Positions 17,830-56,530 of a stretch of DNA of 64,000 nucleotides are shown here, one piece after another. Each line of letters begins with the position of its first letter. The first letter of the stretch is position 1. Origin of the DNA: Candidatus Bathyarchaeota archaeon (GTDB taxonomy: Archaea > Thermoproteota > Bathyarchaeia > Bathyarchaeales > Bathycorpusculaceae); assembly GCA_963772455.1 (NCBI GenBank), contig CAVYXJ010000012.1, forward strand, positions 1 to 64,000. Direction: 5' to 3'. The position numbers and the translations under genes are program-made. Under the pieces are notes generated by a model. That model did not search any database. It was not told where the DNA came from and saw nothing but the letters and a program-made list of their open reading frames with translations.

Positions 17830-17951
17830 ATAGAAATCAGTAATAAACTCCGAGCTTCAATCCCCCAAATATGATGCTTTACATCATTTTTGCATGGTTC
17901 GCTATAAGCATTTCAGGTTTCTGTATACAAAAGCATCTCCCAAACACAGAG

Positions 17952-18521
17952 CTAATCGCATTTTTTGTCTTTTAAAAGCTCATTCTGCATCTTAACAATT
18001 TCAGTACTATCTTTGGCATTCACATAATTATCTAGGAATATCCCGTTTAGTTCAAAAAACGTATGTCCCCAAGTAAAGATGGATAAAAGCTGTTCTGACT
18101 CTTCTTTAAATCCTGCAATATATAATGCAGCGGCTATTGCTTCAGCCGTTGTCAATTTCGTAAGTTTACCAAAATTTACTGGGTTGCCTGCAATCAGAAT
18201 AGGTAAACAGCGGCTAGTTCCTTTCACATGTATTTGCATAACTTTTTGGGCATGTTCCCAACTGCAGTCAAGAGCTGCCAAACCAAAATCTGCAACACGC
18301 TGTCTATCTGAAGGTGAAAACGCTATTTCTGAGAAAGGGTTGAGAACTATTGCACGGTTGGGCAAAAAACGTATACTTGAAACAACTCTTGCAAATCCAC
18401 GCCTCTTTAAGCGAAGTCCAGTACATTTTTTGCGATCACATTGATTAGCATGATAAATGGTGAGTCTTGGAAAAGAGGCAGGAAGAGGCTGTGTTTCTAG
18501 TTCACTGTCCACTTGATTCAT
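17952..18521 (-). CDS. tsr3: 16S rRNA aminocarboxypropyltransferase Tsr3 (DUF367)
   Basis: QCDRKKCTG, LDCSW, LPILIAGNPVNFGKLTKLTTAEA, FTWGHTFFELN. Confidence 0.93.
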   Translation of the reverse strand: MNQVDSELETQPLPASFPRLTIYHANQCDRKKCTGLRLKRRGFARVVSSIRFLPNRAIVLNPFSEIAFSPSDRQRVADFGLAALDCSWEHAQKVMQIHVKGTSRCLPILIAGNPVNFGKLTKLTTAEAIAAALYIAGFKEESEQLLSIFTWGHTFFELNGIFLDNYVNAKDSTEIVKMQNELLKDKKCD

Positions 18522-20043
18522 TCACCTTTAATTTACCCATTGGATCTTCAAAAACACGGGGAATCCAATCTATGATATCAGTTGCAACCATATGAAATCC
18601 AATCTCGTCTGCAACATGGTCGCCTGCAGCACCATTCACATATGTTCCTGCCACAGCTGCTGTGAACGCATCAACTTTCTGTGCCATCAAACCTCCAACA
18701 ATGCCGCTGAGAACATCGCCTGTTCCACCAACAGTCATGCCAGCATTACCCGTGAAATTCAATTTTACCTTATCACCATTGCATATTAGGTCTACTTTTC
18801 CTTTTACCAAAATCACTGCATTCAGTTTCTTGGCGGTCTTCTGTATCGCTAAAATACGTTCCTCCTGATTTTCAGGCAACACTTCACTTGTTAAGATATT
18901 GTATTCACCGGCATGAGGCGTTAATACAAGAGGCACTTTTAGTTGCCGTTTGAATTTTGCAAAGGCTTTTAATGCATCAGCATCTAAAAGTAGCGGTTTC
19001 TTCGCTTTTTCAACTTCATCCACGCATACTTTTACAAATTTTACTGTTTCAGGATTTAAACCCAATCCTGGACCCATAACAACTGCATCAACCATAGCTA
19101 AGTATGGTTTGAGCGTTTCCATATTGGCAGGATTAAGGTTGTTCCCCTCAAGCTTTATAGTTATCAAATCAGGGGACATTGATGAAATTGCCAAAGCCGT
19201 TTTTGCCGGGGCAGCAAGATAAACAATATCTACGCCTGTTCGCATAGCAGCCAACGAAACCAATGTTGGCGCACCCGAGTATACTTCACTTCCACCTATA
19301 ACAAGCACTCTTCCGAAATCCCCCTTATGAGAAGTTGGGTTTCTGGGTTTAGTTGCAAAGTAAACATCGCCAGGACCTGCGAAACGTTCTATTTCTGAGG
19401 GTAAACCAATATCTGCCACGACTAAATCGCCAACATATTTCTTGGCTTTATCCAGACCAGGTTTCTCTTTATGAAAAGTTATGGTAAGATCTGCTTTTAC
19501 AGCAGTTCCCAAGACTTCACCCGAATCTGAATCTATGCCCGTTGGGACATCAACGGCGATTTTGAATCCACTTAGACTGTTAATATAATTAACTGCCTGA
19601 GTTATTGGCGGTTTCAATTTTCCTTTGGTACCCGTTCCAAGCAAAGCATCAACAACTATGCCCACATTAACTTTAGGTATAAGAGAACTGTCAGTAACTT
19701 CATTTACAACAATTTTATTCTGAAGTGATTGCAGAATAAGCCAGTTGCTCATTGCCGCTTCATGATTAATATCGCGTCCTTTGCCCATTAAAACAACAGT
19801 TACTTCAAAATCTGCGGCTAAAAGGTGTCTAGCAACAACAAAGCCGTCACCGCCGTTTCCTCCCAAACCACAGAAAACCACAGCTTTCTTATTCTTTTGA
19901 AAACGTGTAGCGATTTCTTGAGCGACGCTGCGTCCAGCATTCTCCATTAACTGAAGCAAACTAACACCAAAATATTGCGCATTGACTTCTAGGGCACGCA
20001 TTTCAATACTTGTAATGGTTGGGTTTTTGTTTTTGGATTGCAT
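18502..20043 (-). CDS. nnr: bifunctional NAD(P)HX epimerase/dehydratase
   Basis: LMENAG, GLGGNGGDG, HKGDFGRVLVIGGS, TPHAGE, MTVGGTGDVL. Confidence 0.94.
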   Translation of the reverse strand: MQSKNKNPTITSIEMRALEVNAQYFGVSLLQLMENAGRSVAQEIATRFQKNKKAVVFCGLGGNGGDGFVVARHLLAADFEVTVVLMGKGRDINHEAAMSNWLILQSLQNKIVVNEVTDSSLIPKVNVGIVVDALLGTGTKGKLKPPITQAVNYINSLSGFKIAVDVPTGIDSDSGEVLGTAVKADLTITFHKEKPGLDKAKKYVGDLVVADIGLPSEIERFAGPGDVYFATKPRNPTSHKGDFGRVLVIGGSEVYSGAPTLVSLAAMRTGVDIVYLAAPAKTALAISSMSPDLITIKLEGNNLNPANMETLKPYLAMVDAVVMGPGLGLNPETVKFVKVCVDEVEKAKKPLLLDADALKAFAKFKRQLKVPLVLTPHAGEYNILTSEVLPENQEERILAIQKTAKKLNAVILVKGKVDLICNGDKVKLNFTGNAGMTVGGTGDVLSGIVGGLMAQKVDAFTAAVAGTYVNGAAGDHVADEIGFHMVATDIIDWIPRVFEDPMGKLKVNESSGQ

Positions 20044-20842
20044 TTTTGAAGCCTTGATATCTAATTTGTCCGTTAAGAAATAAGGCTATCCTTAAGTCGT
20101 ATACAAAAGCATCGACCAACCAACAAATTTTTTATTTCTTTATTAATTAACCAGCAAAGAAATGCAAAAACACCGAAATATTACGAACCTTAAATATACG
20201 TGAAAACATTAAACAGAAAATAGACCACAGGCCAAGAGAGTAATCGGTTCTTAATCGATAACTTCAGGGTTAAAAGCCAATAAGACACCAATTCACTAGA
20301 AAAAGCTCACTATACTGCGTTTTAGTTCTTAATCTTCCTCCGTATTACCAAAAAATATTCTTTATAATGAATCCCAAATTGAATTTTTAGAATTCTCTGA
20401 CAGATTTTAGCCAAGAATTATGGTTTGAAAGGTAATTTTTAGATAGCAATAATTTTTTTGATTGTAGATTGCAAACTTTATGACTTTTTCAGTTTAAATT
20501 TTTAAGTAAAAAAGGAGATTATTAGTTTTAGGGTTCACAATCGCTCTTAAGTGTTCACGAAAAATAATCGAACGTTCATTTTTTACATTAAATAGTTAAA
20601 AAAACAGATGGATCATCTGTTAAAATGATATAAAATAGTTTAATTATCCATGCTTTGCCATTTGTTTCAGGGTTACGATTTACGAAATGAATAATCTAAA
20701 ATCAAAAATATCTCACTCTAACAAAAATCTTAATTACCTTTTCCGTATGCATTTAAAATTCAGCAAAAAAGTTTATCCACATCGCTACTCTTAATTAAAT
20801 TAGGCTTAGTAGAATACTTAAGCTCAAAAAATTTTTTGAAAA

Positions 20843-21580
20843 ATGGTGACTTATTTGAGCAAAAAATTAATTATACAAAATACAGATACCCTTTTGATAA
20901 CTGATATACAAAACGATTTCTTACCAGGCGGAGCTTTACCCATTGATAACGGCGACGAAATCATACCCGTTATAAATGATTACATTAAAAATTTTAGTGA
21001 CGCTAAAGCTCATATTATTGCCTCCAGAGATTGGCATCCAAATAATCATGTTTCGTTTAACACTCAAGGTGGTTCATGGCCACCTCATTGCATAAAGGAG
21101 ACAAACGGTGCAAAATTTAGTCCTGCCTTAAAGCTGCCTGAACAAACACTAGTTATTTCGAAAGCAACTGAACCTTCAAGTGAGAGTTATTCTGTTTTTG
21201 ATGGCACAATCTTAGCTAACGAGCTGAAACGATTAGGTACAAAACGGTTGTTTATTGGAGGTTTTGCCACAGATTACTGCGTTGTTAACACAGTTCTTGA
21301 TGCACGAAAACTCGGACTTGAAACAATTGTGTTTATGGATGCAACTCTAGGAATAAACGTTAATCCTGGCGACGTAGAAGCCGCTATCCAAACAATGGTA
21401 TCAAACGGTGCTTTGCAAGCAACAATTGAAGATTTTCCAGAAGCAGTGGATGCTTTGCCTTTAGAAGAAACTCAACCTGATGAACTGGCAGAAAAACCTT
21501 CACTGAGGGCTGAAATTAAGAAAAAAGCTCGAATGCGTCCCAAGGGTTCAGCAAAACGAATCAGAACAGAACACGGCTAA
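20843..21580 (+). CDS. pncA: nicotinamidase/pyrazinamidase
   Basis: DIQNDFLPGGAL, DWHP, WPPHC, GGFATDYCV; charged C-terminal extension. Confidence 0.9.
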   Translation: MVTYLSKKLIIQNTDTLLITDIQNDFLPGGALPIDNGDEIIPVINDYIKNFSDAKAHIIASRDWHPNNHVSFNTQGGSWPPHCIKETNGAKFSPALKLPEQTLVISKATEPSSESYSVFDGTILANELKRLGTKRLFIGGFATDYCVVNTVLDARKLGLETIVFMDATLGINVNPGDVEAAIQTMVSNGALQATIEDFPEAVDALPLEETQPDELAEKPSLRAEIKKKARMRPKGSAKRIRTEHG

Positions 21581-22148
21581 ATATCTTCGAATAACTGCGA
21601 ACCTTATATAATCATGCAGATGAGTCTTGAATAACCACTCAAGACCCTGCAAAACAACTTCTCAAAGTTTCTTTTCCTCGACAAAAAAAATTTTTTTGAT
21701 AGAGATCCAAATTTTTGATTCTCAAAAAGTTGAAAATTGATTTTCAGGAATGAAAAAGATCATAAAAACTTGTTGAATGTAAGTTTGATGCCCTTAAGAT
21801 CTCATTTTTAGCAAAATTTTTTCTTCTTTACCTAATCAAAGTTGTTTTTTTCAAGGAAAATAACAAATATTGTTCTCTCAAAGAGTACAATTTTATTTTT
21901 CCAGTTTTTGGATTAAAATTTACCTCTTCAAATTTGTAAATTAATGTTTTTTCATTAACGAAATTTAATCGAATAGTCACTTTTAACAACAAACAGTTAA
22001 AAACATACACAACACAATATTAAATTATTATTCTAAAGTTCAAAAAGCACGTTTAACAATCCTTTTTTGCTTTAAAAAAACGAAAACTGTAAACCGTGAA
22101 AAAATAGATTGAAAAAATTCAGTTACCACTATTTCAAAATCTTTTACA

Positions 22149-22565
22149 TCATAATTCGCCTATGACCTGGATAATAATCGATCTTTCTCTGGGATAAACA
22201 TCAGTTTCCACAAAAAGCAGCGACTGCCAAGTTCCAAACTCAACTTGCCCATCAATCACAGGAAGAGTCTTGTCTGGTGGAAGAACCATAGACCGTAAAT
22301 GTGAATGCGCATTAGATGGGTGTTGGTATTCTGCATTTTTTGGAATCAGTTCTTCTAGAAAAACCTTGATGTCTTCTAGTAGAGCATCGTCGTTTTCTGT
22401 CAAAATCAAAACTCCTGTTGCATGAGGAGCAAAAACGTGGACTATACCATTTTTGATTGCGGACTTGTAGACTTCTTCTCGGATTTTTTCGGATAAGTCT
22501 ATGAAGTCTATTTCTCCTTGCGTGGTGAATTTGTAAGTTTTGTTGTGGACTTTAAAAGTTGTCAG
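22149..22565 (-). CDS. yjbQ: YjbQ/UPF0047 family protein, probable CTG start
   Basis: Frame open from CTG 22565 with aaggagaagg upstream; APHATG, SNAHSHLRS, FGTWQ motifs; 138 aa. Confidence 0.85.
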   Translation of the reverse strand: MTTFKVHNKTYKFTTQGEIDFIDLSEKIREEVYKSAIKNGIVHVFAPHATGVLILTENDDALLEDIKVFLEELIPKNAEYQHPSNAHSHLRSMVLPPDKTLPVIDGQVEFGTWQSLLFVETDVYPRERSIIIQVIGEL

Positions 22566-24594
22566 ATTTACCTTCTCCTTTATTTTATTCTTAGGTTTTT
22601 ATTGAAATAGTTTTCGAGATTCTAAAGGAATTAATGTGTTTGGGGGATGCTTTTGTATACCGAATTTAGAAGGCACAAGTCTGTTTCATATGATGATTAA
22701 AAGAATAACCCACATTTTCAGTGCTTTGTAATGAATCAAAATGTTGCAAACTTTAATGATCTATACAAAGTAAACTGCTATTGAGAATTTGATGTGATAG
22801 ATGAATTCCCCTTACTGGCGGTAGCCAAAAAAAAGCTTAACACTTTCTATAGTTAAATCAACTAGTTCTCCCTATTTTTTTTTGAAATTTTTAGGCACTT
22901 GTTTATTCTCTGTGTGGATATGAAAATGAAGTACCTCTTGCAGCTTTTATTAATTGATTTAAAAGAAGGAGTCAATTCTCAAACTCGAAGACTAAAGTTC
23001 GGTGAATTATGCTACTGTTTTCCAGCTCGTTGCATATAGTGATGTTGCTTTTTGATGTAATACTTAATTCACACAAAGCACTGAACTCGGATTTTTATTC
23101 AATTGTGACCCGAATTATTAGTCATATTAGTCAGGCTTGAAACGATCATATTGTGCTCTTAACTAAATGGATTTAAAAAAAGAACGATTAGATGTCTACT
23201 AAGCCTTCTGCATAGTCCAATTTGCCAAAAGAAAAACTGAAAAATAATAAACCCTGAAATAATCTGAACCCTAAATCCCCTAAATAGCTTATTCAATTTT
23301 TAAGTTTTTTTTAAATAAGTTTTAACCGGTTGTGAAAGTCCAAATAAAGAATAAATTATTAGTAGAGAAAAAGATATGGGTTAAAACAAACAAGGTAAAA
23401 CTAGAATTCAAAACAGTTGTAGTCAATGATTTTTTTGGATTTCCAGTTAAGCCCTTGTAATCTTTAAGCACATCACGAGTTAAAATACGAAATTCTGGAA
23501 CCTGCCAACTCGGGTCTAAGGCTCCTAGATAAAGCAACAAAGACATCCTGATAATAATTGTAGAGTTGCCTCTTGAATCAAATTTTCAAACTCCGCTTAA
23601 AAAAAATTGTTTTAAAAGAGCAATCTTTTAGGTCAGATTTCGAACACTTCCTCAAAGTCAATAGAGCTCAAGTTATAATTTTGGCGAAAATATTCCACAT
23701 TTTTAAGCAATAGAATAACGGTTAATCGTAAAGCCCTATTTGCCTAACAGACCTACAATTAAGTCTATTTTGCTATAAAGTTGAATTGAATGTGTTGTTT
23801 TGCTCCGAAAGGCTCTAAATGTAAAAAGTTACAAGTTTTTTCTATGGAAACCATAATCTAACGACCCAATTTAACCTTTAAAACGCAAAAAAGGGTCAAT
23901 TATACCTTAATCGGTTTTAGGGTAAACAACTGGCATGGACATTACCAGAGCCTCATATAAGTACCCTCGAAAATCTCCATGCGAAGCAAAAGGCAGTTTC
24001 TTCGGCTACCCTTCGAGCATAAACCAGCATTTTTAACCTTTTTTTAGTAATTCTGCGAACTTTGACGTTTTCAACAAAATTTTTTTAAGAGCCAATTTTA
24101 TCGTTAGGGGTTGCGCCGGTTTTATTTTTTGTTTTTTTATCCTGCAGTCTATTCTTTTTTTAGGTGTCTTGAAGTTGTTGATTGAATCTTAAGAAATGTT
24201 TTAAGGCAATACTTTGTAATTGATCAAATAGAAAGTTACCGGATTAGTTTCATTGGCGGTTTTGGATTTTTTTGGTGAGGTTTAGGGTTAATTTTTTGAT
24301 CTCTTAAGGATCATTTTTTTATAGCTTTTGAAGTTGGCGGTGACTTTTAAAGTGATTAGTGTACTCTAAACCGCGGATATTTTTAATGTGTGGATGTAAA
24401 AAAATACCTTATCAGTGAGTCTGGTTGTATTTATAATACAGCAATTTTTCACCGTCACCAGAGCTCTCCAATCACACCTGACATGAATTCAAGTGAATAC
24501 GAAAGCATCTCCAAAACACAGTTTCAGTGTCTCCTGAGGAACAATTTTTATCTCAAGAGCCAGATTAGATACAAGCATTCAAGAGGAGAAATCG

Positions 24595-25029
24595 TTGACT
24601 ACTGAAATTGACCGAATCAAACTTCGGCGTTGGCGTAAAAGAGGGTTCTACAGCGAAACAGTCCTGGTTAAACTCCTGCAGAAAAAAGGCTACTACTCTG
24701 TCCGCGTACCGGTAAGCAACCCCAGCCTTAACCCTTTACCAGATATCATGGCACGAAAAGGCAAACACGTCTATGCATTTGAAGTAAAAAACGCCACCTA
24801 CTACGCCTACTTTCCAAGGATGCAAATCGATAAACTCTTCAGGTTTCTCGATCAATTCATTCCCACAGGTAACGAAAATAAACATGCTGTAGTAGCTGCT
24901 CACCTGGGGAAAAGGTGGTTATTTAAGGAAATTAGCTGGATTGACTGGGAAAAAAACAAGATTCCTGACAAGGTAAGGATTCTAAAAAGAGATCGAGGTA
25001 ATTTAAATCTAGACACAAGTTACCAATAG
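24595..25029 (+). CDS. Hjc-like PD-(D/E)xK nuclease (Holliday junction resolvase family)
   Basis: RGFYSE..LVKLL..KGYYSVRVPVS...PDIMA...AFEVK matches the archaeal Hjc signature. Confidence 0.78.
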   Translation: MTTEIDRIKLRRWRKRGFYSETVLVKLLQKKGYYSVRVPVSNPSLNPLPDIMARKGKHVYAFEVKNATYYAYFPRMQIDKLFRFLDQFIPTGNENKHAVVAAHLGKRWLFKEISWIDWEKNKIPDKVRILKRDRGNLNLDTSYQ

Positions 25030-25319
25030 AGATCGTTATCTTGCGACCAAACTAATTATTCCTCTATAACAACTGGTTGATAAGTATCGTTGTTTGTTGT
25101 CGTATTGTTGTGGCTTTGTTGTGTGTGTTAAGGGTTATGATAGGTAGAGTAGCGGTTAGTTAGAAAATCCGAGAGAAAAGGATTAATTTTTTTATCCACC
25201 ACCAACACTTGGCTCACCTCATCAAGTTCAGGTAATGAACTTCAATAAGAAATCGAATTGATTTTTTAATAGAAAATTTTATGAACAAACTCAAATATAA
25301 AGAAATTAAGCAGATTTGA

Positions 25320-25787
25320 ATGTCAATCAAAAAAGTTAACATTCCAAAGATTCTTAATTGGTTTGTCGCCTCAGGAATTGTTCTAAGTTTGGTCGGTCTC
25401 TTTTTGCCTTGGGGCAGTTACCCTTGGCATACTCTCGGTATTGGTGACCATCCATATTATGTTGGTGTTGAGATTTTAGTCGGAGACTTTGCTTTGATAG
25501 GCTGCCTTTGGAGTTTTGGGTTTTATGTACGAAGTCTTAGACACCCAATCCAACCAACAAGATTGGTGATACCTGGCGAACTTGCTGTAGCATTATTTTC
25601 TTCCTTTTGGATTCTTGCTCCTAACATCATTTCCTTCTTTTGGTATTCTGAACACGGACCTTTACGGCTCCTCAACAGCTTTTACCCCTCGACACCTCTA
25701 TATGGTGCTTACGTAAGTCTAACGGGTGCCTTAATTGCACTAATTGCTCATAGCCTTAAAAGTTATGTTAGATTGATTGAGTCTTAA
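25320..25787 (+). CDS. membrane protein, 4 TM
   Basis: LFLPW in TM1, YGAYVSL in the last TM. Confidence 0.65.
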   Translation: MSIKKVNIPKILNWFVASGIVLSLVGLFLPWGSYPWHTLGIGDHPYYVGVEILVGDFALIGCLWSFGFYVRSLRHPIQPTRLVIPGELAVALFSSFWILAPNIISFFWYSEHGPLRLLNSFYPSTPLYGAYVSLTGALIALIAHSLKSYVRLIES

Positions 25788-25931
25788 TCTTGTATGTGTG
25801 TATTAAATTTTAGTAACAGAGAAGAATAAACGTGAATTTTTTAATCTTCTTTTTCTATTAAATATATTATTTTCACCAAAGACCAAACTAAAAGACAAGG
25901 TCTACATGATTATGTAGCCTTTTTTCTAAAT

Positions 25932-26652
25932 TTATTCTTTTAAATCATGATTTAAATTTCGAATTGCCGTAGAGAAGAATTTCATCGTTTCGGTATAAGC
26001 TGGTAATTGACATATGAAGTCTTGAAGTTGAAGAACCGGTACTACGGGGACTTTTCGATAGAATTTGAATGCGCTTGGAACAAGAGAAAGCACGGCTGGA
26101 ATGAACTTGGCTTTTTCCCATTTTGCACATTCAAGTTTTAATGAAATATTTGGCAGAGAATCCACTAGGGCAAGTGTTCTTTGTGTTTGCAAATCAACTA
26201 TTTTGTGGAGAGCTGAAGGTGAAATTGCTCGTTGCCAATGTTTACAGTCAATGCAGATTACGATTGGTTTCTTACAACCGACCACGTCGATTTCCCATCT
26301 TTTTGCTTCATGCTTGAACCTTACATTTTTTTTGACGACGTAGCCATTGTTCTTTAGGGCCAAGGACAGCGATATCTTCAAACTCTTGCCAACATAGCAA
26401 ATCGCTAATATGCTCAATGTCTGCGCCCATATTGGCAGCTTTGACAGCAAGTTTGAGTCGGCTGCTGCTGTCTACTTCAATAACGTTGGTCTTTAGATAA
26501 ATGAGGTTATCATTTTGCAGTTTACAAAGCAACTCCATCGTAGTGTCCAAGGGTATTCTTGCGTCCTTATTGACACATTCAATTAAAACAGTCCCTTCTT
26601 TAGTCAATTTTAAGAGCGAAATTATCAGATTTCGTTCAACACTCATATTCAT
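25932..26652 (-). CDS. wHTH plus restriction-endonuclease-like (Mrr/NERD) protein, frameshift near 26360
   Basis: ORFs 26308-26652 (WQEFEDI) and 25932-26450 (WEIDVVG...IDCKHW) join into one PD-(D/E)xK protein. Confidence 0.75.
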
Positions 26653-27643
26653 GCCTCAATAAAGTTGACACAAAACAAGCAAGAACATTGAAAGCATTCC
26701 ACAGGTTAACAGAACGTGAAGTTGAACTACTAAAAAGCGTATACAGAAGCATCCCCCAAACACACTTTCGCAAATGAAAAACTTCTCCAGTCTTCTTCAA
26801 ACGGTCAATTACCAATTTTTTCACTTATTTGAATTCAATGTTTTCTAATGAAAGAATGTTTCCCTTAACATTTCAAAAAATGAAAATTGTACCCTTTTCG
26901 CTTCTCGTACATAAAAAATATGGTTAGATGAATGGTCTTTTGCACTAATTCAACGCACTTTCACTCAATAGTTAATATATATTTTAACTTTTAAATGTTA
27001 AAATTGAACATTCGATTTATTTTCGCTAAACTGAAAGTCGTTTAGTTAACTTTTACAAAATAAATTTCTAAGAAAAACCAAGTAACACGGAATTTTGAGC
27101 AAAATCAAGCCAGGTACATTAATTATTTTACTCATATCCTATTCTGAGTTCCCCTTACTTTTTGAGTATGACACGTGCAATCTGGATTTAGCAAAATATT
27201 TTTTAAGATTCTGTTCAAATCTTGCTTGAAAGACTTCAATTACTCTATATTTTATTCCGTGTGAAGGATCTAAAGCTGATAAAACGTTATTTTTTAACAC
27301 AAAGATGCTTAATTTTGCACCAGGGTAGTTTGCGTGAAAATTTTAGATTAAATAAAGATTACTGGTAACATTATTTTTTCCGAATCATTCACTTGTTTTG
27401 GTTTGTTGTTTTAATGAATATTTATAGTTCGCCATATTTCGAAAAATTAATGTCTTTTGGCTAAGATTGCTTACTCGTTAATATGTCTGGGCGATGCTTT
27501 CGTATACAAAATTTGAAATTTATTCAAAAAAAAATAAATTGAATGCTAGAAGAAAAAAACCTTGTTAGTTAATTGTTATTAAAGAGTAAAAGATTAAGCC
27601 TCTTTAATCGCGGGCTACAAATAAATGCCTATAAAAGAATTAA

Positions 27644-37815: not shown

Positions 37816-38487
37816 TTACCCTTTGATTAGTGTAAAAATTGAATTTTGACCTGCCATTATTGATTTGATCCGTTCTGGAAATAATCCGTTAACAACAAAA
37901 CAATTAATTGGTGTTTTCAAAAGCAGTTTAGGTAAGGCTTGGTCTACACTTGTTCGCTTATCCATGGCTAATAAATCGTTTACTGATATTTGTTTTATTA
38001 ATTTAGCTTCTGAAAATTTTTTGGGGTCGTTATTGAAGATTCCATCGACATCCGTAACCAATATAACTTTAGCAACTTTCAATCTGCCAGCAATGTATAC
38101 GGCGATTGAGTCAGATGTTACAGCCCAAGAATTTTCCAAGGGGTCTTCTTGAAGTAGCAGATTTGAAGGCAAGAAAATGGGTATCTTGTTCAAATCTATA
38201 ATTCGTTTTATTTCTTCAAGTGTATTTGTTGTAATCGAACCAGGAATCAAATCTGACAGTAGCATTCCATATTGATCCATGCCTAAAATTGCCATCTTGT
38301 GAGATGTACTGGCCGACAAATGGAAACTTTTATCTAAACATCGTACAACATCAGCGAATTCGCCTCCACCAGGAATCACAATCAATTTTTGTTCCATTGA
38401 AATTTCACTTAATTTTATGCATAAAGCTCTCACCTTTTTGGGGTATACCGATAAACTGCCGCCAACTTTTACGACCGTAGCATTCAT
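37816..38487 (-). CDS. mfnE: amino-acid-kinase-family protein, MfnE-like
   Basis: VVKVGGSL, PGGGEFADVVR, SWAVTSDSIA, TDVDGI; operon context. Confidence 0.82.
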   Translation of the reverse strand: MNATVVKVGGSLSVYPKKVRALCIKLSEISMEQKLIVIPGGGEFADVVRCLDKSFHLSASTSHKMAILGMDQYGMLLSDLIPGSITTNTLEEIKRIIDLNKIPIFLPSNLLLQEDPLENSWAVTSDSIAVYIAGRLKVAKVILVTDVDGIFNNDPKKFSEAKLIKQISVNDLLAMDKRTSVDQALPKLLLKTPINCFVVNGLFPERIKSIMAGQNSIFTLIKG

Positions 38488-39545
38488 TTGATGTTTTCTC
38501 CTTCAAGTTTACTTGCAGCCATTATAGCAACTCCGAAGGCTGGAGTAGCTAAAACAGCCTGATTAGACAGTATTTTTCCTAAATCAATTATTTCGTCCAC
38601 ACATAATTTTTCAGCGGCTTTTCGTGCGATAAAGTTTTTTCCAAGTCCAGTAATTACGATGGGAACTTTACTTGAAGTTAATGATTTGGTGAAGGAATAG
38701 ACTTTTCTTAAACCCTCTACAACGTCTTGAATTTGTTTATCCGAAATATATTCTGCCATTTTGACAATTTCTTGTTTGGTTAACATTTCGGTATCTGCAC
38801 ATACGACTCGGGCAATTCGCGCTAATGCTTCAGGTATAGTTTTTCCTTTTCCGTCTGCAGTCTCGCTTGAATATTCATCCTTGTGTATATTGCCTAAAAC
38901 CAGATGGATATCGCCTGATAATGCGAAAAGCTCAGATGCAACACCTGCAACGGCATTTCTAATTGGAATTGAATGTACGATTGTTGCAACGTTTGTTCTT
39001 AAGCTTCCAGTATAAACAAGCTCACCACAGATGAGTTTGTCCAAATCAGTCTTACCAAGTGCTACAACCTTACTGTTTACAACGGGGATTATGGTAGTGC
39101 TTGTGCTTCCAACATCGACGATAACGCAGTTCTTGAGTTTTTTAGCTACTAACCAACCGGTTGCCGCCCAATTTGCTGCTGCTATATCGAGCGGTTTGTG
39201 CTTAGCAATATCCAAGGTTACCATTTCAGCACTTGTGTTTAGTACGAGAACTGGTGTTTTAGGAAAAGTCTTTGAAACGCAGTTTAAAATGTCGGTGACA
39301 CCTTCCCGTTTGGTTTGATAAGCATCGGAAAGTTCAGCGGTCATGGTTAAACCAACACCATCTAAATCGCTCGCATCTAACTGCCGTTTAAGGTTGAGAA
39401 GAACTTGTGCGAGTTTTTCGGGTTTTTTCCAGATTGGAAAATACTTAACCGCAACTTTCGCTTCTATAAGCTTACCTCCTTTGACGCATACGAGTGCAGC
39501 TTTGGTGTTTGCTCCGCCGACATCGTAGCCTAACACATGAACCAA
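38484..39545 (-). CDS. mfnF: hydantoinase-A-like protein, MfnF
   Basis: GYDVGGANTK, TMTAELSD, AAANWAAT, DVGSTST, ETADGKGK. Confidence 0.85.
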   Translation of the reverse strand: MVHVLGYDVGGANTKAALVCVKGGKLIEAKVAVKYFPIWKKPEKLAQVLLNLKRQLDASDLDGVGLTMTAELSDAYQTKREGVTDILNCVSKTFPKTPVLVLNTSAEMVTLDIAKHKPLDIAAANWAATGWLVAKKLKNCVIVDVGSTSTTIIPVVNSKVVALGKTDLDKLICGELVYTGSLRTNVATIVHSIPIRNAVAGVASELFALSGDIHLVLGNIHKDEYSSETADGKGKTIPEALARIARVVCADTEMLTKQEIVKMAEYISDKQIQDVVEGLRKVYSFTKSLTSSKVPIVITGLGKNFIARKAAEKLCVDEIIDLGKILSNQAVLATPAFGVAIMAASKLEGENIK

Positions 39546-39554
39546 ATGTCTTCC

Positions 39555-40775
39555 TCAAGTGATAATGTTGTGTATAGTCTTTTTAGCTTCTTCTAAATGG
39601 ATCTTTGCATCAGTTAAGGTGATGCCTTCACCGATGATTAGAGCAATTGACTTTTTGTTTTCGCTTAAAGGAAAAGGTGGTGCAACAACAGAACTCATTT
39701 CCTTTATTTTTTGAAAAGCCGTAGTTGTTGGTTTGGATATTTCTACTTTTGAGAAACAGGCAAATGCTTTATTTTCGAGTTTACTTGGAAGCATATCTTT
39801 CAAAACAGCATCTACCAAAGCTTTGGCAACATTAAACCGCGCAACTTTTCGCAAGCCAATATACGAGGTTGTCAATCTTGGGTTAACGTCAACAACGAAC
39901 GGTTTATGCTCTGTGAAAACGAAATCTACTCCAACATATCCTTTCAAATCAGAGAAGGTTTCGACTACTTTTTCTGCAATCTCGAATGCTTCTTGTTTAA
40001 GCCAATTCTCAAAAGGGACTTCGCCACCTTCGTAACTTGAAGTTGCATCTGAACCAGCAAGGTAAATGTCTTGTTTGTTTAAGCTAATCGCTTTGGCTTT
40101 TTTGCCTGTGGACAGCAGACTGACGCTTGCAGCTTGGCCTTTGATAAATTCTTGGGCAATAAAACATTTACACATAGATACAACGCTTATTTTTTTGATG
40201 GCGTCAGAAAGTTGGGTTTCTCTATTAACCAAACTTAATCCGCTACAGCCTACCCCATCGGCAGGTTTCAAAATTAATGGATAACCTAAGCTTTTCTTAA
40301 TTGTTTCTTTAATTTTGTTTAATCCATCGTCCATTCCAAGTATCACTGTTTTCGGTGAAACTCCAAGTTTTTGCAGTACTTCAGACAAAACTGTCTTATC
40401 AGCTACTTTCTTGATTGTGCGGGATTTACAATTTAACGATTTTTTACCCGTTTGCTCTGCAAGTTCTACAAACGATTGCAGTGTTTGTTCAGTTTCAGGT
40501 GCTATAACATAAATTGCATCGTTAATTTTGGAAATATTGGTAAAAACTTTTTCAAGGTCATTGAGATTAAATATTTTCTCAGTACAATCGGCATCTAAGA
40601 GTGGGTTAAGTTTTGATAGTCGTGAATCAATTAAAACTGTTACTTCATGGCCTGCGACTTTAAAATCTTCAACTATGCAGCGGAGCATGCCAAATCCTTC
40701 TGCTAATACACTTGGAGAAATATCTTGACCTGCATAACCTCCGCCTGAAACATGCTCGTAAACAAAAATCTTCAA
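39555..40775 (-). CDS. mfnD: ATP-grasp tyramine-glutamate ligase, MfnD-like
   Basis: YEHVSGGG, EGFGML, IAPE, KPADGVG, VDVNPRLTTSY. Confidence 0.82.
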   Translation of the reverse strand: MKIFVYEHVSGGGYAGQDISPSVLAEGFGMLRCIVEDFKVAGHEVTVLIDSRLSKLNPLLDADCTEKIFNLNDLEKVFTNISKINDAIYVIAPETEQTLQSFVELAEQTGKKSLNCKSRTIKKVADKTVLSEVLQKLGVSPKTVILGMDDGLNKIKETIKKSLGYPLILKPADGVGCSGLSLVNRETQLSDAIKKISVVSMCKCFIAQEFIKGQAASVSLLSTGKKAKAISLNKQDIYLAGSDATSSYEGGEVPFENWLKQEAFEIAEKVVETFSDLKGYVGVDFVFTEHKPFVVDVNPRLTTSYIGLRKVARFNVAKALVDAVLKDMLPSKLENKAFACFSKVEISKPTTTAFQKIKEMSSVVAPPFPLSENKKSIALIIGEGITLTDAKIHLEEAKKTIHNIIT

Positions 40776-40811
40776 AACTAACTCCTTTCCAGAATCAATT
40801 GAAAAATCATA

Positions 40812-41956
40812 TTACTTTTCAACCTTTTCTATCTCAGCCAAATCTTGCAGAAACTTTTTGATATGTTTACTTTTTACATGTGGCATAACAACAATCCTTA
40901 TGCAGTCATGCCTTGGAACATAAGAAACAAACCAACCTTTCGCCCGCAACCTCTCAGACAAAACCTTTGTATTTTCGCTTCGAAAAGCAACAATATTCAA
41001 AGTGGGTTTCACAACAAGATTAAAACCAGCTTTTTCGACGCCATCAACGAGCAACTTTGTGTTCTTCATGCAAGTGCCCACGATTTTTTGGAAGCCTTCC
41101 GTGCCTAATGTCTTGAAAACTGCCCATGCTGAAGCGACTGCGGCTCCAGATCTTGTTCCTGCAAATGTGTATTGGACCTTGTCGGTTATGTAAGGTGTTT
41201 CAGTTTTGAGATAATTCAGGGTTGTTGCATCTTTGAAGAGGATGCCTCCTGCAGGAATTGCTGCCATTCCCATCTTGTGTGGGTCAACTGTAATGGATTT
41301 AACGCCTTCTAAGCTGAAGTCAAAGATTGGTTTTATGTTGGGTAAAAAAGGAATTATTAATCCGCCAAAGGCTGCATCAACGTGCAAGTATATGTTATGA
41401 CGCAGTGCAATTTCGGAAAGCTTATCGATGGGGTCGACCACTCCTAATTCTGCTGTTCCAGCAGTTCCAACAATTGCTATTGTGTTTTTGTTTATGCATT
41501 TTTTGACTTCTGATGTGTCAACTCTAAGAGAACTATCTAACTCTGCATACACAGGTTTCAAATTCAGAAGATTACAGATTTTGGTAAATGAGAAGTGAAC
41601 TGACTTTGGCAAAACCACTTCAGGTTGACTGATGTTTGCCATATTTTTTGCTGCTAAGTAAAGCCATTAGATTTGCTTCTGTGCCCCCTGAAACAACAAA
41701 TCCACTTGCATTCTCTTTGTGGAGTAACAGTTGAAAGTGCATGGACGACTTCTTTTTCTATTAGCAAGGTTCCAGCAAAAAGTCCTGAATCCCCCAGATT
41801 TGATTCAAAAAACATTTGGTAAGCTTTTTTTGCTATAGGATGAGGAGTTGTACACATTGAACATAGAACTCTTCCATCAACATATTGTTGATCTAAATTA
41901 TGCAACTTTTTTAGTTCAGCCAAAACAGTTTTTCCGCTTAACCCTTTTTGTTGCAA
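40812..41956 (-). CDS. mfnA: tyrosine/aspartate decarboxylase MfnA, frameshift near 41728
   Basis: SMCTTPH and NLGDSGLF in the 5' part; HVDAAFGG and DPHK (PLP Lys) in the 3' part. Confidence 0.9.
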
Positions 41957-41958
41957 GG

Positions 41959-42699
41959 CTAAGCCCTCTTAAAGTTGGCTCTTGTTTCCGCCTGTTTAAC
42001 TTCATCAACGAGTTCACTTACTAGTTTTCTGGTGATTTGACCTGTTTCTCGATTGTTGTTTGTACATGCTGCACCTCGTAATCCAGCGATGTCTGCATTT
42101 AAACCGTAAACTACCGGCAAATCCTGTTTTCTCAGTGAACCAGCCAAGGCGGTTACAAGGCCAAAACTATGTGCTAAGTTAACAAATTTTCTAAGTTGCT
42201 CAATTGTTAAGTAATCAAATAGGTTTTTGCCATCTTTAATCGATGTATCTAGCATTGCAACCTCGACTTGAGCTTTGTTTGCTATTTCAGGAATAAGCAA
42301 AGGATCTATTGTGCCGATTTTTTCGGCATCTGCATAACCGGCTAAAGCAACCTTGATGTTAGGATTGCATTCTTTAGCGGCTCTATTTACTTTTTGCAGT
42401 AGAAAAATTGCTTCTTTTGGCGTTTTAATTCCGAAAAGACCTACTTTAATGTAATCTACTCCAAGTGATGCAGCTCCCACAGCTGCCAGTGAAAATGAAC
42501 CAGGGAGATTTCCAATTTCTCCTAATGTACAGCTGACCTCGAGTTTTTTTGGAGTAATATCTTTTATTTTCTTAATAACCCATGGATAATTTGCGCCAAG
42601 TGCACCTTCTTCAGGGTTCTTTACATCGATTATGTCGGCGCCTCCAGCGATTGCTTCTAAAGCTTCTTTTTCGTTCATGGGGCTTATGAGCAGCTTCAA
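41959..42699 (-). CDS. mfnB: (5-formylfuran-3-yl)methyl phosphate synthase
   Basis: LLISP..EA...GGADIIDVKNPEEGALGA, YIKVGL, MLDTSIKDG, ALAGSL, GLRGAAC. Confidence 0.93.
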   Translation of the reverse strand: MKLLISPMNEKEALEAIAGGADIIDVKNPEEGALGANYPWVIKKIKDITPKKLEVSCTLGEIGNLPGSFSLAAVGAASLGVDYIKVGLFGIKTPKEAIFLLQKVNRAAKECNPNIKVALAGYADAEKIGTIDPLLIPEIANKAQVEVAMLDTSIKDGKNLFDYLTIEQLRKFVNLAHSFGLVTALAGSLRKQDLPVVYGLNADIAGLRGAACTNNNRETGQITRKLVSELVDEVKQAETRANFKRA

Positions 42700-55626: not shown

Positions 55627-56530
55627 ATGAAACATGAGCATCAACCAAGAATAGATAAACTATCCGATATCCATGAGTACAAAGGAGCTACAAAAAAGCG
55701 TCTTTTACTTTCTATGATCATCACCGCCTCAGTAATGGTTATCGAAGTCATCGGAAGCACGTTAACAGGCAGCTTGGCATTAGCAAGTGATGCAGCACAT
55801 ATGTTTACGCATTTGTTTGCGTTAGCAATTAGTTTTACAGCCATTATAATTGCATGTAAAAAACCATGCCACCATAGAACATATCGGTTACTTCAGAGCC
55901 GAAATTCTCGCCGCTTTGTTTAATAGTATTTTCCTTTTTGCAGTAACCGCATACATATTATACGAAGGGATAGAACGGTTACTAAATCCGCAACCAGTTT
56001 TGGGCTTTGAAATGTTTTTGGTTGCCTTGGCGGGGTTGGCCGCGAATGGATTTAGCATACTCATTCTTCGCAACAGCATGAGAAACGACCTAAATGTTAG
56101 AGGAGCTTTTCTTCACATGTTTGCAGATGCTGCATCCTCGGTCGCCATCATATTTGGAGCAATAATTGTTGCTTATAGTGGATGGTATTTTATTGACCCG
56201 CTATTAGGAATAGGGATATCCGTATTGATTTTTGTTTGGGCATACGGGCTATTGCGCGACTCCATTAATGTTTTAATGGAAACTGCTCCAAAAGGCATGA
56301 ATATTGACTTGGTAACAGCGCAAATTAAGGAAAATATTCCTGAGGTGGTGGCAATAAATGATATTCATATTTGGGAAATTACTTCTGGAATGTATTCTTT
56401 AACTGCTCATGTAGAGGCAAATATAACTGATGAGAATATAGAGGATATTATCGCTAGAATAAACAAGTTGTTGGCGGATAAATTCGCAATCGAGCACACG
56501 ACATTACAAATTCAGCCCAAGAAGATATAA
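55627..56530 (+). CDS. cation diffusion facilitator (CzcD/ZitB-like), frameshift near 55883
   Basis: SLALASDAAHMFTH, RAEILAALFN, RGAFLHMFAD, DIHIW, HTTLQ. Confidence 0.88.

Follow-up and report, generated by a model that had tools for sequence, protein, structure and literature searches.

An oriented motif clustered opposite the presumed replication origin in Bathyarchaeales: a predicted site for a polar obstacle to replication forks

Replication termini marked by oriented DNA sites have been described in bacteria, where the Tus/Ter system of Escherichia coli and the RTP/Ter system of Bacillus subtilis use sparse, asymmetric sites of 20-30 bp that keep one orientation per chromosome arm and are passed by forks coming from the origin. 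In these systems the innermost sites form an inverted pair at the terminus (close together in B. subtilis), some of the sites overlap promoters, and the terminus is prone to recombination. Among eukaryotic factors, Reb1/TTF-I, Fob1 and Rtf1-RTS1 provide examples in which one protein acts upstream of promoters and also as a direction-dependent replication barrier. For archaea, stochastic fork collision (PMC3020120) has been reported in Sulfolobus, the one archaeon studied for termination. Our literature searches found no paper on a sequence-defined, oriented terminus element in any archaeon, nor any on the origins or termini of Bathyarchaeia. Here we describe such a candidate element in a 64-kb stretch of a Candidatus Bathyarchaeota archaeon (order Bathyarchaeales; assembly GCA_963772455.1, contig CAVYXJ010000012.1, positions 1 to 64,000), referred to below as the window. 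Six copies of an asymmetric motif occupied a gene-poor zone of the window; in several related chromosomes the corresponding cluster lay opposite the presumed origin, and the copies outside the cluster pointed toward that origin. We tentatively propose, with a probability of roughly 0.38, that the motif is the predicted site of an asymmetric, tightly bound protein that would form a polar, Ter-like obstacle to forks and would also act near promoters.

Six places in the window fitted the 15-mer core GTATACAAAAGCATC at no more than two mismatches, within a motif of the form GTATACAAAAGCATC(N)CCCAAACACA. The core matches lay at 17923 (+), 20099 (+), 22646-22660 (-), 24495 (+), 26739 (+) and 27493-27507 (-). 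The expected count was 0.25, and none of 100 dinucleotide shuffles reached six; a seventh match to the 15-mer was not found in the window at the same stringency. A profile of 52 copies, drawn from the window's genome (G000) and eight relatives, carried information from -2 to +28, giving a site of ~30 bp with the consensus YN-GTATAC-AAAAGCATC-AMC-MAAACACA-NTT. The only dyad within it was GTATAC, and the form by which the motif is named has 28 letters. An earlier note on the window, made from its letters, had reported six asymmetric 26-mers at these places, all intergenic, at the edges of long AT-rich non-coding tracts and absent elsewhere in the window. All of this was borne out: the quoted 26-mers matched the sequence, the 52-copy profile was asymmetric, and tracts free of any open reading frame (ORF) match occurred between the copies (20125-20842, 21581-22148, 22661-24494 and 26765-27481) in a zone with a GC content of 0.29-0.38. 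The copies, some of which head non-coding gap units described further below, were as follows.

17923..17948, + strand: motif copy m1, flanked by the LysE start and the Tsr3 stop; a copy stands at the same position in some relatives (G016, G013 and others)
20099..20124, + strand: motif copy m2, with 56 nt separating its GTATAC end from the Nnr start; heads a gap unit running toward PncA
22635..22660, - strand: motif copy m3, upstream of UPF0047 in forward orientation; the link between motif and UPF0047 holds in other families
24495..24520, + strand: motif copy m4, with the Hjc start 100 nt downstream and a conserved box resembling a B recognition element and TATA box (BRE/TATA-like) at +44 to +63
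26739..26764, + strand: motif copy m5, its GTATAC end 87 nt from the start of a winged helix-turn-helix (wHTH)-NERD gene; forms a convergent pair with m6
27482..27507, - strand: motif copy m6, heads the second gap unit, with the L38e 3' end on its other side

Across the whole G000 assembly (2.45 Mb in 24 contigs, 92% complete), only two further full or good copies were found, at C7:456,878 (+) and C10:132,678 (-). The motif is therefore not restricted to this one locus. Around the six copies no homology extended beyond the motif itself, save between the m2 and m6 gap units. The core was a constant of the genus, occurring in 24 of 24 same-genus genomes in one search and in 56 of 56 in a larger one, with 4-16 copies each; a reversed-pattern control gave 0-1 matches in same-genus genomes. 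It was found in 243 of the 301 genomes of the order. In other orders of the class a single match occurred in 4 of 117 genomes, as against 7 control matches, which is the background level. Outside the window's genus the core read GGATACAAAAGCATCAAC and the tail was variable. The outcomes by which the earlier note would have been refuted, a motif scattered genome-wide or missing from relatives, were not observed.

The position of the cluster on the chromosome was judged relative to the orc1/cdc6 genes, which in G000 lie on contigs C10 and C7, with none in the window. Beside orc1-1, the better-scoring copy, two inverted TCGAGnnGAAACATnGGGGTG sites flank an AT-rich stretch of ~160 bp (C10:89,282-89,488). 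We presume this pair to correspond to the canonical archaeal origin recognition box (ORB), and the orc1-1 locus is taken as oriC. The inverted pair was found solely beside orc1-1 in G000, G003 and G250; at the same stringency G014 had one copy there and G285 had none. An ORF upstream of orc1-1 was read by eye as the PolD small subunit. In six single-contig genomes of 2.15-3.05 Mb, covering three genera and two families, the centre of the motif cluster lay opposite orc1-1.

G003, 2,354,843 bp: cluster centre at 50.9% of the chromosome from orc1-1
G014, 2,683,460 bp: cluster centre at 51.6% of the chromosome from orc1-1
G040 (another family), 2,152,572 bp: cluster centre at 50.7% of the chromosome from orc1-1
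G250, 3,040,071 bp: cluster centre at 50.5% of the chromosome from orc1-1
G267, 3,053,889 bp: cluster centre at 49.98% of the chromosome from orc1-1
G285 (another genus), 2,733,133 bp: cluster centre at 49.97% of the chromosome from orc1-1

In G194, assembled as two contigs, the cluster stood at 53.6% of the large contig. Strand composition in G003, sampled as 100 stretches of 20 kb (85% of the chromosome), changed at the cluster. The cumulative AT skew was maximal in the block starting at 962,029, which contains the cluster. The cumulative ORF strand bias had a local maximum one block before (937,593) and then fell steadily to 1.77 Mb, and genes therefore converge on the cluster. When the chromosome was divided at 99 antipodal split points, the strand asymmetry of all 4-, 5- and 6-mers was highest at 960 kb for every k, and a fine scan placed the peak at 952-964 kb, which is the cluster. 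A free two-boundary scan set one boundary at 962-986 kb. The antipodal scan is symmetric and blind to the difference between origin and terminus; the cluster was assigned to the terminus side, not the origin side, because orc1-1 with its ORB pair lies opposite. The guess in the earlier note of a terminus organiser agreed with the position of the cluster, 49.97-51.6% from orc1-1 in the six single-contig relatives, and with the switch in strand asymmetry in G003.

The orientation of the copies was equally regular outside the cluster. With the motif arrow defined as running from GTATAC to CACA, every copy outside the cluster that could be placed on one side of orc1-1, 40 in all, pointed toward oriC. 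This comprised 23 of 23 copies in closed genomes, ~5 of them weak matches (G003, 2; G014, 7; G250, 6; G267, 2; G285, 4; G040, 2), and 17 of 17 on the orc1-bearing contigs of 11 further genomes. In G014 the orientation flipped within 19 kb around orc1-1 and flipped again at the cluster. The non-cluster contexts that were inspected represented at least seven distinct loci or gene contexts, and a cautious sign test on distinct loci gave about 2^-6 to 2^-7. Orientations within the cluster were mixed; the layouts there that conformed to the rule were that of G194 (- - | +) and single inverted pairs only.

These observations can be accommodated if one sequence-specific, asymmetrically binding protein occupies the motif and its sites are arranged relative to replication. 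A fork derived from oriC would meet the CACA end first at every copy outside the cluster. Forks would be able to pass the protein-DNA complex from one side and would be hindered on the other, much as Tus-Ter and RTP-Ter work, and selection would keep distant copies in the orientation that lets forks through. Only the zone where forks meet would tolerate a mixture of orientations, which would be why the multi-copy cluster sits at the terminus. Of the readings considered, a polar-obstacle protein is the best, as it covers all of the observations, and its binding to the motif is predicted from sequence.

The earlier note had also raised the possibility of a non-canonical origin, and a second origin with the motif as its own recognition box would share some of the features described above. 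Convergent pairs of copies flank AT-rich tracts of 0.65-0.8 kb in every genus genome looked at, and the length and asymmetry of the site resemble those of ORBs. However, a canonical inverted ORB pair with its AT-rich stretch is present beside orc1-1 on another contig, the motif differs from that pair, and orc1/cdc6 genes are absent from the window. Genes and k-mer asymmetry converge on the cluster, and all distant arrows point away from it. A second origin was extremely improbable on these grounds, and this reading was rejected. A centromere, also suggested in the earlier note, was rejected as well, since the window ORFs that were compared with Pfam included no partition gene and the element is antipodal to the origin.

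The motif also showed a recurring geometry relative to promoters. A conserved BRE/TATA-like box was present at +44 to +63 from the motif start upstream of Hjc (21 loci) and UPF0047 (22 loci), beginning ~20 bp beyond the motif end and followed by the start codon at about +85 to +100; each of the 23 Hjc-centred loci had a copy ~100 nt upstream of Hjc. Of the two additional G000 copies, one preceded the glutamate dehydrogenase (GDH) gene by 94 nt and the other an HhH-GPD (EndoIII-like) gene by 88 nt, with TATA-like boxes between. In other genomes, an ORF of GDH size (416-418 amino acids, aa) followed the motif in five and one of EndoIII size in two, at +71 to +95, and a MazG-like ORF followed it at +63 and +83 (two genomes). 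Under the polar-obstacle reading, the sites in the window's genus would have been co-opted ~20 bp upstream of the BRE/TATA-like boxes of Hjc, UPF0047, GDH, EndoIII and the MazG-like gene. In the window the distances from motif to start were 94 nt (LysE), 56 nt (Nnr), ~70 nt (UPF0047), 100 nt (Hjc) and 87 nt (the NERD gene, in part called orf114 in the earlier note), and the motif was reversed relative to the gene in three of these five cases (m1/LysE, m2/Nnr and m5/wHTH-NERD). Away from promoters, one copy stood between convergent genes (G003, 2,137,131; G014, 526,523), and some pairs in family f7 were flanked by gene 3' ends.

Such geometry is what an ordinary transcription factor regulon would produce, in which one regulator would use the motif as its operator or upstream activating site, and terminus position and polarity would be inherited accidents. 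The genes concerned could be seen as a small damage-control set (Hjc, EndoIII, MazG-like, Nnr, isochorismatase-family, UPF0047, GDH and an ABC/FtsX pump). Start codons follow the forward motif after 63-100 nt, BRE/TATA-like boxes begin ~20 bp past its end at Hjc and UPF0047, and the same geometry recurs at GDH (6 genomes), EndoIII (3-4) and the MazG-like ORF (2). The link between motif and UPF0047 is maintained across families, and in the gap units the motif is followed by a block that resembles a promoter. A regulon leaves unexplained, however, the antipodal placement at 50.0-51.6% in six genomes of different size and the 40 of 40 oriC-pointing copies, an orientation by which every forward-regulated gene is head-on to replication. 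Convergent genes or gene 3' ends border some of the copies, the motif is a long, non-palindromic site, and no regulator gene was found to co-vary with it. The wHTH-NERD gene, the candidate examined, did not track the motif: it was present in 246 of 301 genomes, including mostly motif-less families, and missing from the pair-keeping genera g20, g24 and g32, and it was dropped as a general motif binder. The fixed distance to BRE/TATA-like boxes, which the earlier note had named as the mark of a regulon, thus held for several copies, whereas antipodal position and replichore polarity did not follow from it. A pure regulon covers the promoter geometry and does not explain the antipodal placement, the polarity or the non-promoter copies, and we consider it doubtful.

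Outside the window's genus the element usually took a simpler form, an inverted pair with a '-' copy first and a '+' copy 219-330 bp further on (528 bp in one locus). All 15 loci fetched from other genera had such a pair, as did G030, and it is the ancestral core of the element, for which the spacing is put at 245-330 bp. The segment inside the pair was laid out as TTGGTGA, ~20 nt, GTAATAC, 5 nt, TCACCAATATCACCAA, ~35 nt and GTTTTGCCTAC. UPF0047, Hjc and wHTH-NERD were linked to the pair across families. The pair was retained in G003, G016, G019, G267 and G194; in the window the partner repeat has been lost and a remnant of the inner segment stands beside m4.

24405..24470, - strand: remnant of the ancestral inner segment, with TTGGTGA ... 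GTATTAC ... TCACC boxes beside m4, recognized by eye against aligned inner segments

As a predicted fork obstacle, the antipodal pair would be positioned like a minimal fork trap around the 250-330-bp inner segment, where the two forks would meet. A strict Tus/Ter-like trap fits the minimal pairs and the copies outside the cluster.

The inverted pair was accompanied by a recombinase in many genomes. At 14 of the 15 fetched loci from other genera, and at locus L046, one repeat had a tyrosine recombinase of 170-217 aa beside it at a distance of 30-420 bp, and in many loci the stop codon of the recombinase was ~35 bp from the repeat. The protein, typically ~190 aa, consists of the catalytic domain only, with invariant R, K, HxxR, W and Y positions and the motifs FLAFLYWFGVRKAEALER, PKKGG, YYPHFFRLNRATRFL, WFGWK and DPYIGYSRRH (loci L191-L205 and L046). 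Among profiles it matched Pfam Phage_integrase weakly and none in NCBIfam, and members of this family always stood next to the inverted motif pair. Its best solved relative was the archaeal XerC-like recombinase 4a8e (E 6e-4), which we take to be XerA of P. abyssi. The gene was patchily distributed, occurring in 40 of 301 genomes of the order (f7, 25 of 60; f11, 7 of 47; f1, 8 of 147). C-terminal recombinase fragments with stop codons stood beside the repeat in G030, G057 and G081. In the window's genus, a tblastn search for this mini-recombinase at E<1e-3 gave no match in the whole G000 assembly, the genus loci or 85% of G003, and a profile search at E<=0.01 gave none in G000 and none in 23 of 24 genus genomes, with one weak match (3e-4) in the other. 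Phage_integrase matches in G000 were weak (best E 3.5e-6).

Inversions bounded by motif copies were also seen. G014 carried the central segment, from the m2-type to the m6-type copy, in inverted orientation, and the inner segment was inverted between identical flanks in locus L194 relative to L204 and L198, and in genus g76 relative to g7 and g81. Contigs from four DNA runs matched the window only as short pieces of relatives, and apparent 'joints' in them were dropped as rearrangements and read as cross-matches between repeats, because their sides were only 22-55 letters long and ended at motif copies.

The copies could accordingly be recombination sites, that is, inverted repeats for a small XerA/FimB-like tyrosine recombinase that form an invertible switch or shufflon or serve as dif-like accessory arms; one orientation per arm would then persist since only cross-arm inversions would be tolerated. 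The adjacency of the recombinase with its XerA-like best solved relative, the inner segment found in both orientations between the same flanking genes, and the G014 inversion bounded by copies all favor this explanation. FimB/E with its 314-bp fimS switch is comparable in size to the recombinase and pair described here. The likeness to the Fim switch and the R64 shufflon extends to a recombinase of ~200 aa, its 3' end abutting an inverted repeat, an inter-repeat segment of 250-330 bp in both orientations, and asymmetric repeats. The layout of repeats with an adjacent recombinase was found in f7 loci, and not in the window or its genus. Unlike Fim or shufflon repeats, those described here persist and multiply without the recombinase, their antipodal position is fixed, and the distant copies obey arm polarity.

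The archaeal Xer/dif systems are the other obvious comparison. A terminus position is what would be expected of a dif-like region (PMC2958812), and inverted repeats have been reported around dif in Thermococcales and M. stadtmanae (PMC2958812, PMC11840125). The terminus location, the large AT-rich intergenic setting and the XerA-like gene beside the pair in other families are shared features. However, the motif is asymmetric, occurs in 7-16 copies and is not an 11-6-11 imperfect palindrome, unlike dif, a 28-bp site present once per chromosome. The recombinase is catalytic-domain-only and was not found in the window's genus, and no conserved TAA-N6-8-TTA dif-like site was seen by eye in the window. 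Recombination sites are further disfavored by the disparity between recombinase (40/301) and motif (243/301) in the order, and by the fact that the recombinase-less genus of the window has the most and best conserved copies. Directly repeated copies along a single arm would be prone to deletion, and a phase switch would have no reason to sit exactly opposite oriC. Pure recombination covers the adjacency of the recombinase and the inversions and does not explain the persistence of repeats without it or the antipodal position; we regard it as unlikely.

The recombinase can also be joined to the predicted fork obstacle in a wider proposal, which we put forward as a tentative possibility. The order may possess a termination system of its own, in which a predicted terminator protein would act on an oriented 28-bp site and the inverted pair would be a fork trap of 250-330 bp exactly opposite oriC. 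A minimal XerA-like recombinase, Hjc and the NERD nuclease would originally have worked together with this trap in chromosome finishing and resolution, with sites on the arms as back-ups against origin-bound forks. This would represent the first archaeal fork trap and a third independent invention of the Ter type.

A boundary for chromosome folding or segregation was also considered, at which the motif-bound protein would stop SMC-type complexes in a direction-dependent way, or unload them, and would not act on forks directly. In its favor, the cluster occupies a terminus zone that is poor in genes and rich in AT, and polarity toward oriC on both arms could suit a traveler moving from origin to terminus. 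There is a parallel in T. kodakarensis, whose Smc boundary lies in a 1.9-kb AT-rich intergenic region that holds dif, between convergent genes (PMC11840125). The Thermococcus boundary, however, rests on TrmBL2 and A-tracts and not on an oriented specific motif, and an SMC boundary would leave the promoter geometry unexplained. This alternative appeared distinctly improbable.

Several observations weigh against a polar fork obstacle, the most direct being the orientations within the cluster. In the window's genus and in g21 the copies read + - - | + + -, so that the two outermost point inward, and in genus g16 the third copy aims at the pair. Strong barriers in inward orientations would leave several kb unreplicated, and a strict fork trap is contradicted by these copies. 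The 40 polarity observations amount to roughly 7-10 independent ones, because many of the sites are orthologous and inherited. Position was less regular in f7, where five single-contig assemblies, of 62-88% completeness and with circular closure unconfirmed, carry the element: four were off the antipode (G136 at 23.6%, G170 at 31.4%, G222 at 17.5% and G229, with a single copy, at ~27%), and the fifth, G214, fitted it at 52.7%. A sixth, G089, was without the pair. Among the 11 element-bearing single-contig genomes, 7 were thus within 3 points of 50% and 4 were outside. The second boundary of the free scan in G003 fell at 1.72-1.84 Mb, not at orc1-1 (2.17 Mb), which counts against a simple two-arm picture. 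Plain GC skew was uninformative, being flat and noisy on contigs C10 and C12 of G000 and in G003, and was therefore left out as evidence. The fixed distance to a TATA-like box in five or more genes is what would be expected of an ordinary transcription factor. No Tus homologue (PF05472) was found in any of five genomes, and RTP (PF02334) gave only generic winged-helix matches below the curated cut-off.

The region at 1.72-1.84 Mb in G003 is also the minimum of the cumulative ORF strand bias; orc1-1 is ~350-450 kb away from it, and the second cdc6 gene (1,484,557) ~290 kb.

The comparison with known barriers is qualified accordingly. In contrast to the bacterial Ter systems, the host here has an archaeal MCM replisome, copies within the cluster face the 'wrong' way, many copies stand at a fixed distance from promoters, the matches to the bacterial terminator proteins are absent (Tus) or sub-threshold (RTP), and fork arrest is predicted from the layout of the sites. 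Factors of the Reb1/TTF-I type belong to another domain of life, and the barrier role is here a prediction.

The genes of the window are archaeal (L38e, Hjc, Tsr3, TBP, TFS, aRF1 and RNase P RNA among them). The locus runs Macro, LysE, m1, Tsr3, Nnr, m2, a 0.72-kb gap, an isochorismatase-family gene, UPF0047 and m3, and continues with a 1.8-kb gap, m4, Hjc, a membrane ORF, wHTH-NERD, m5, a second 0.72-kb gap, m6 and L38e. Gene order and motif positions recurred in every fetched locus of the genus (8 loci from the G-numbered genomes and 23 Hjc-centred loci), and the m2-position copy was present in 23 of 23 Hjc-centred genus loci with a flank long enough to judge. The two PD-(D/E)xK nucleases noticed in the earlier note were confirmed as Hjc and the NERD-domain gene, and its orf114 and NERD ORF proved to be a single 235-aa gene in relatives. 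The genes in and around the cluster were as follows.

18502..20043, - strand: Nnr gene (YjeF_N and carbohydrate-kinase domains), assigned by domain match
20843..21580, + strand: isochorismatase-family gene; the label PncA rests on the fold family only
22149..22590, - strand: UPF0047 gene, with a conserved N-terminus that lacks an ATG, GTG or TTG start
24595..25029, + strand: Hjc Holliday-junction resolvase (PF01870, E 3e-13), the sole Hjc match in the genome
25932..26652, - strand: winged-helix and NERD (PD-(D/E)xK) nuclease gene, frameshift-split in G000

In UPF0047 the conserved N-terminal 30 residues are in frame, and the ATG of the relatives is CTG in G000 (context AAATCTGACA). The wHTH-NERD gene is one ORF of 235 aa in G003 and of ~228-240 aa in other families; in G000 it occupies two overlapping frames near 26,440, which may reflect a frameshift, a pseudogene or an assembly error. 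On one 46.6-kb record the Hjc-centred cluster occurred twice, in opposite orientation at the ends (loci L055 and L056), possibly as a palindromic assembly artefact or as a true inverted duplication.

The non-coding DNA of the locus was itself partly conserved. An alignment of 41 gap units indicated that m2 and m6 each head a unit consisting of the motif, block A, ~330 nt of unconserved AT-rich DNA and block B, with block A, which is promoter-like, at +70 to +100 of the unit. The 1.8-kb tract between m3 and m4 contains a further conserved element of ~120 nt.

20172..20202, + strand: block A of the m2 gap unit, CGAAA-N6-CGAAC with a TATA-like box, conserved among the 41 aligned units
20558..20606, + strand: block B ('EL') of the m2 gap unit, containing the 16-mer CGAAANNTAANCGAAC, which occurs once in the genome
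21957..22003, + strand: third and weaker copy of block B, between the PncA and UPF0047 3' ends
26982..27027, - strand: block B of the m6 gap unit
27413..27446, - strand: block A of the m6 gap unit, from the aligned gap units
23925..24045, + strand: conserved non-coding element of ~120 nt inside the 1.8-kb tract, with TATA-like CCTCATATAAGTACC, CGAAG...CTTCGAG and a T-run

Block A was considered as a dif-like site (TAA-N6-TTA) and dropped; the 41-unit consensus fits that pattern and neither copy in the window does. The 23925-24045 element was conserved in 35 related loci, other genera included (G285, G194), and is possibly a small RNA gene; RNAalifold returned 10 pairs with 1 compensatory change, a weak degree of support for the fold. 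No Rfam match at gathering level fell within the locus, the window containing only RNase P RNA and two tRNAs. Elsewhere in the window, the Cation_efflux family was matched by two overlapping ORFs at 55627-56530 (+), covering profile positions 1-59 and 61-198, with the look of a frameshift-split gene. Genes resembling those of methanofuran biosynthesis occupied 37816-42699 (-), as a run of 4-HFC-P synthase, a pyridoxal-phosphate (PLP) decarboxylase, an ATP-grasp enzyme, a hydantoinase-like protein and an amino-acid kinase, and cytochrome c assembly and COX1 fragments were also present.

An oriented motif clustered opposite oriC, with its other copies pointing toward the origin, is a layout so far described only for bacterial terminus sites. 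If the motif is mainly the site of a transcription factor, its strict arm polarity would be an unusual case of replication shaping the placement of regulatory sites. If the polar-obstacle reading is true, links between archaeal termination, dimer resolution and Holliday-junction cutting would become testable with a defined DNA site, and the motif would serve as a handle for fishing out its binding protein. In uncultured Bathyarchaeia, where GC skew is uninformative, the motif would be a practical marker of the terminus and of the chromosome arms.

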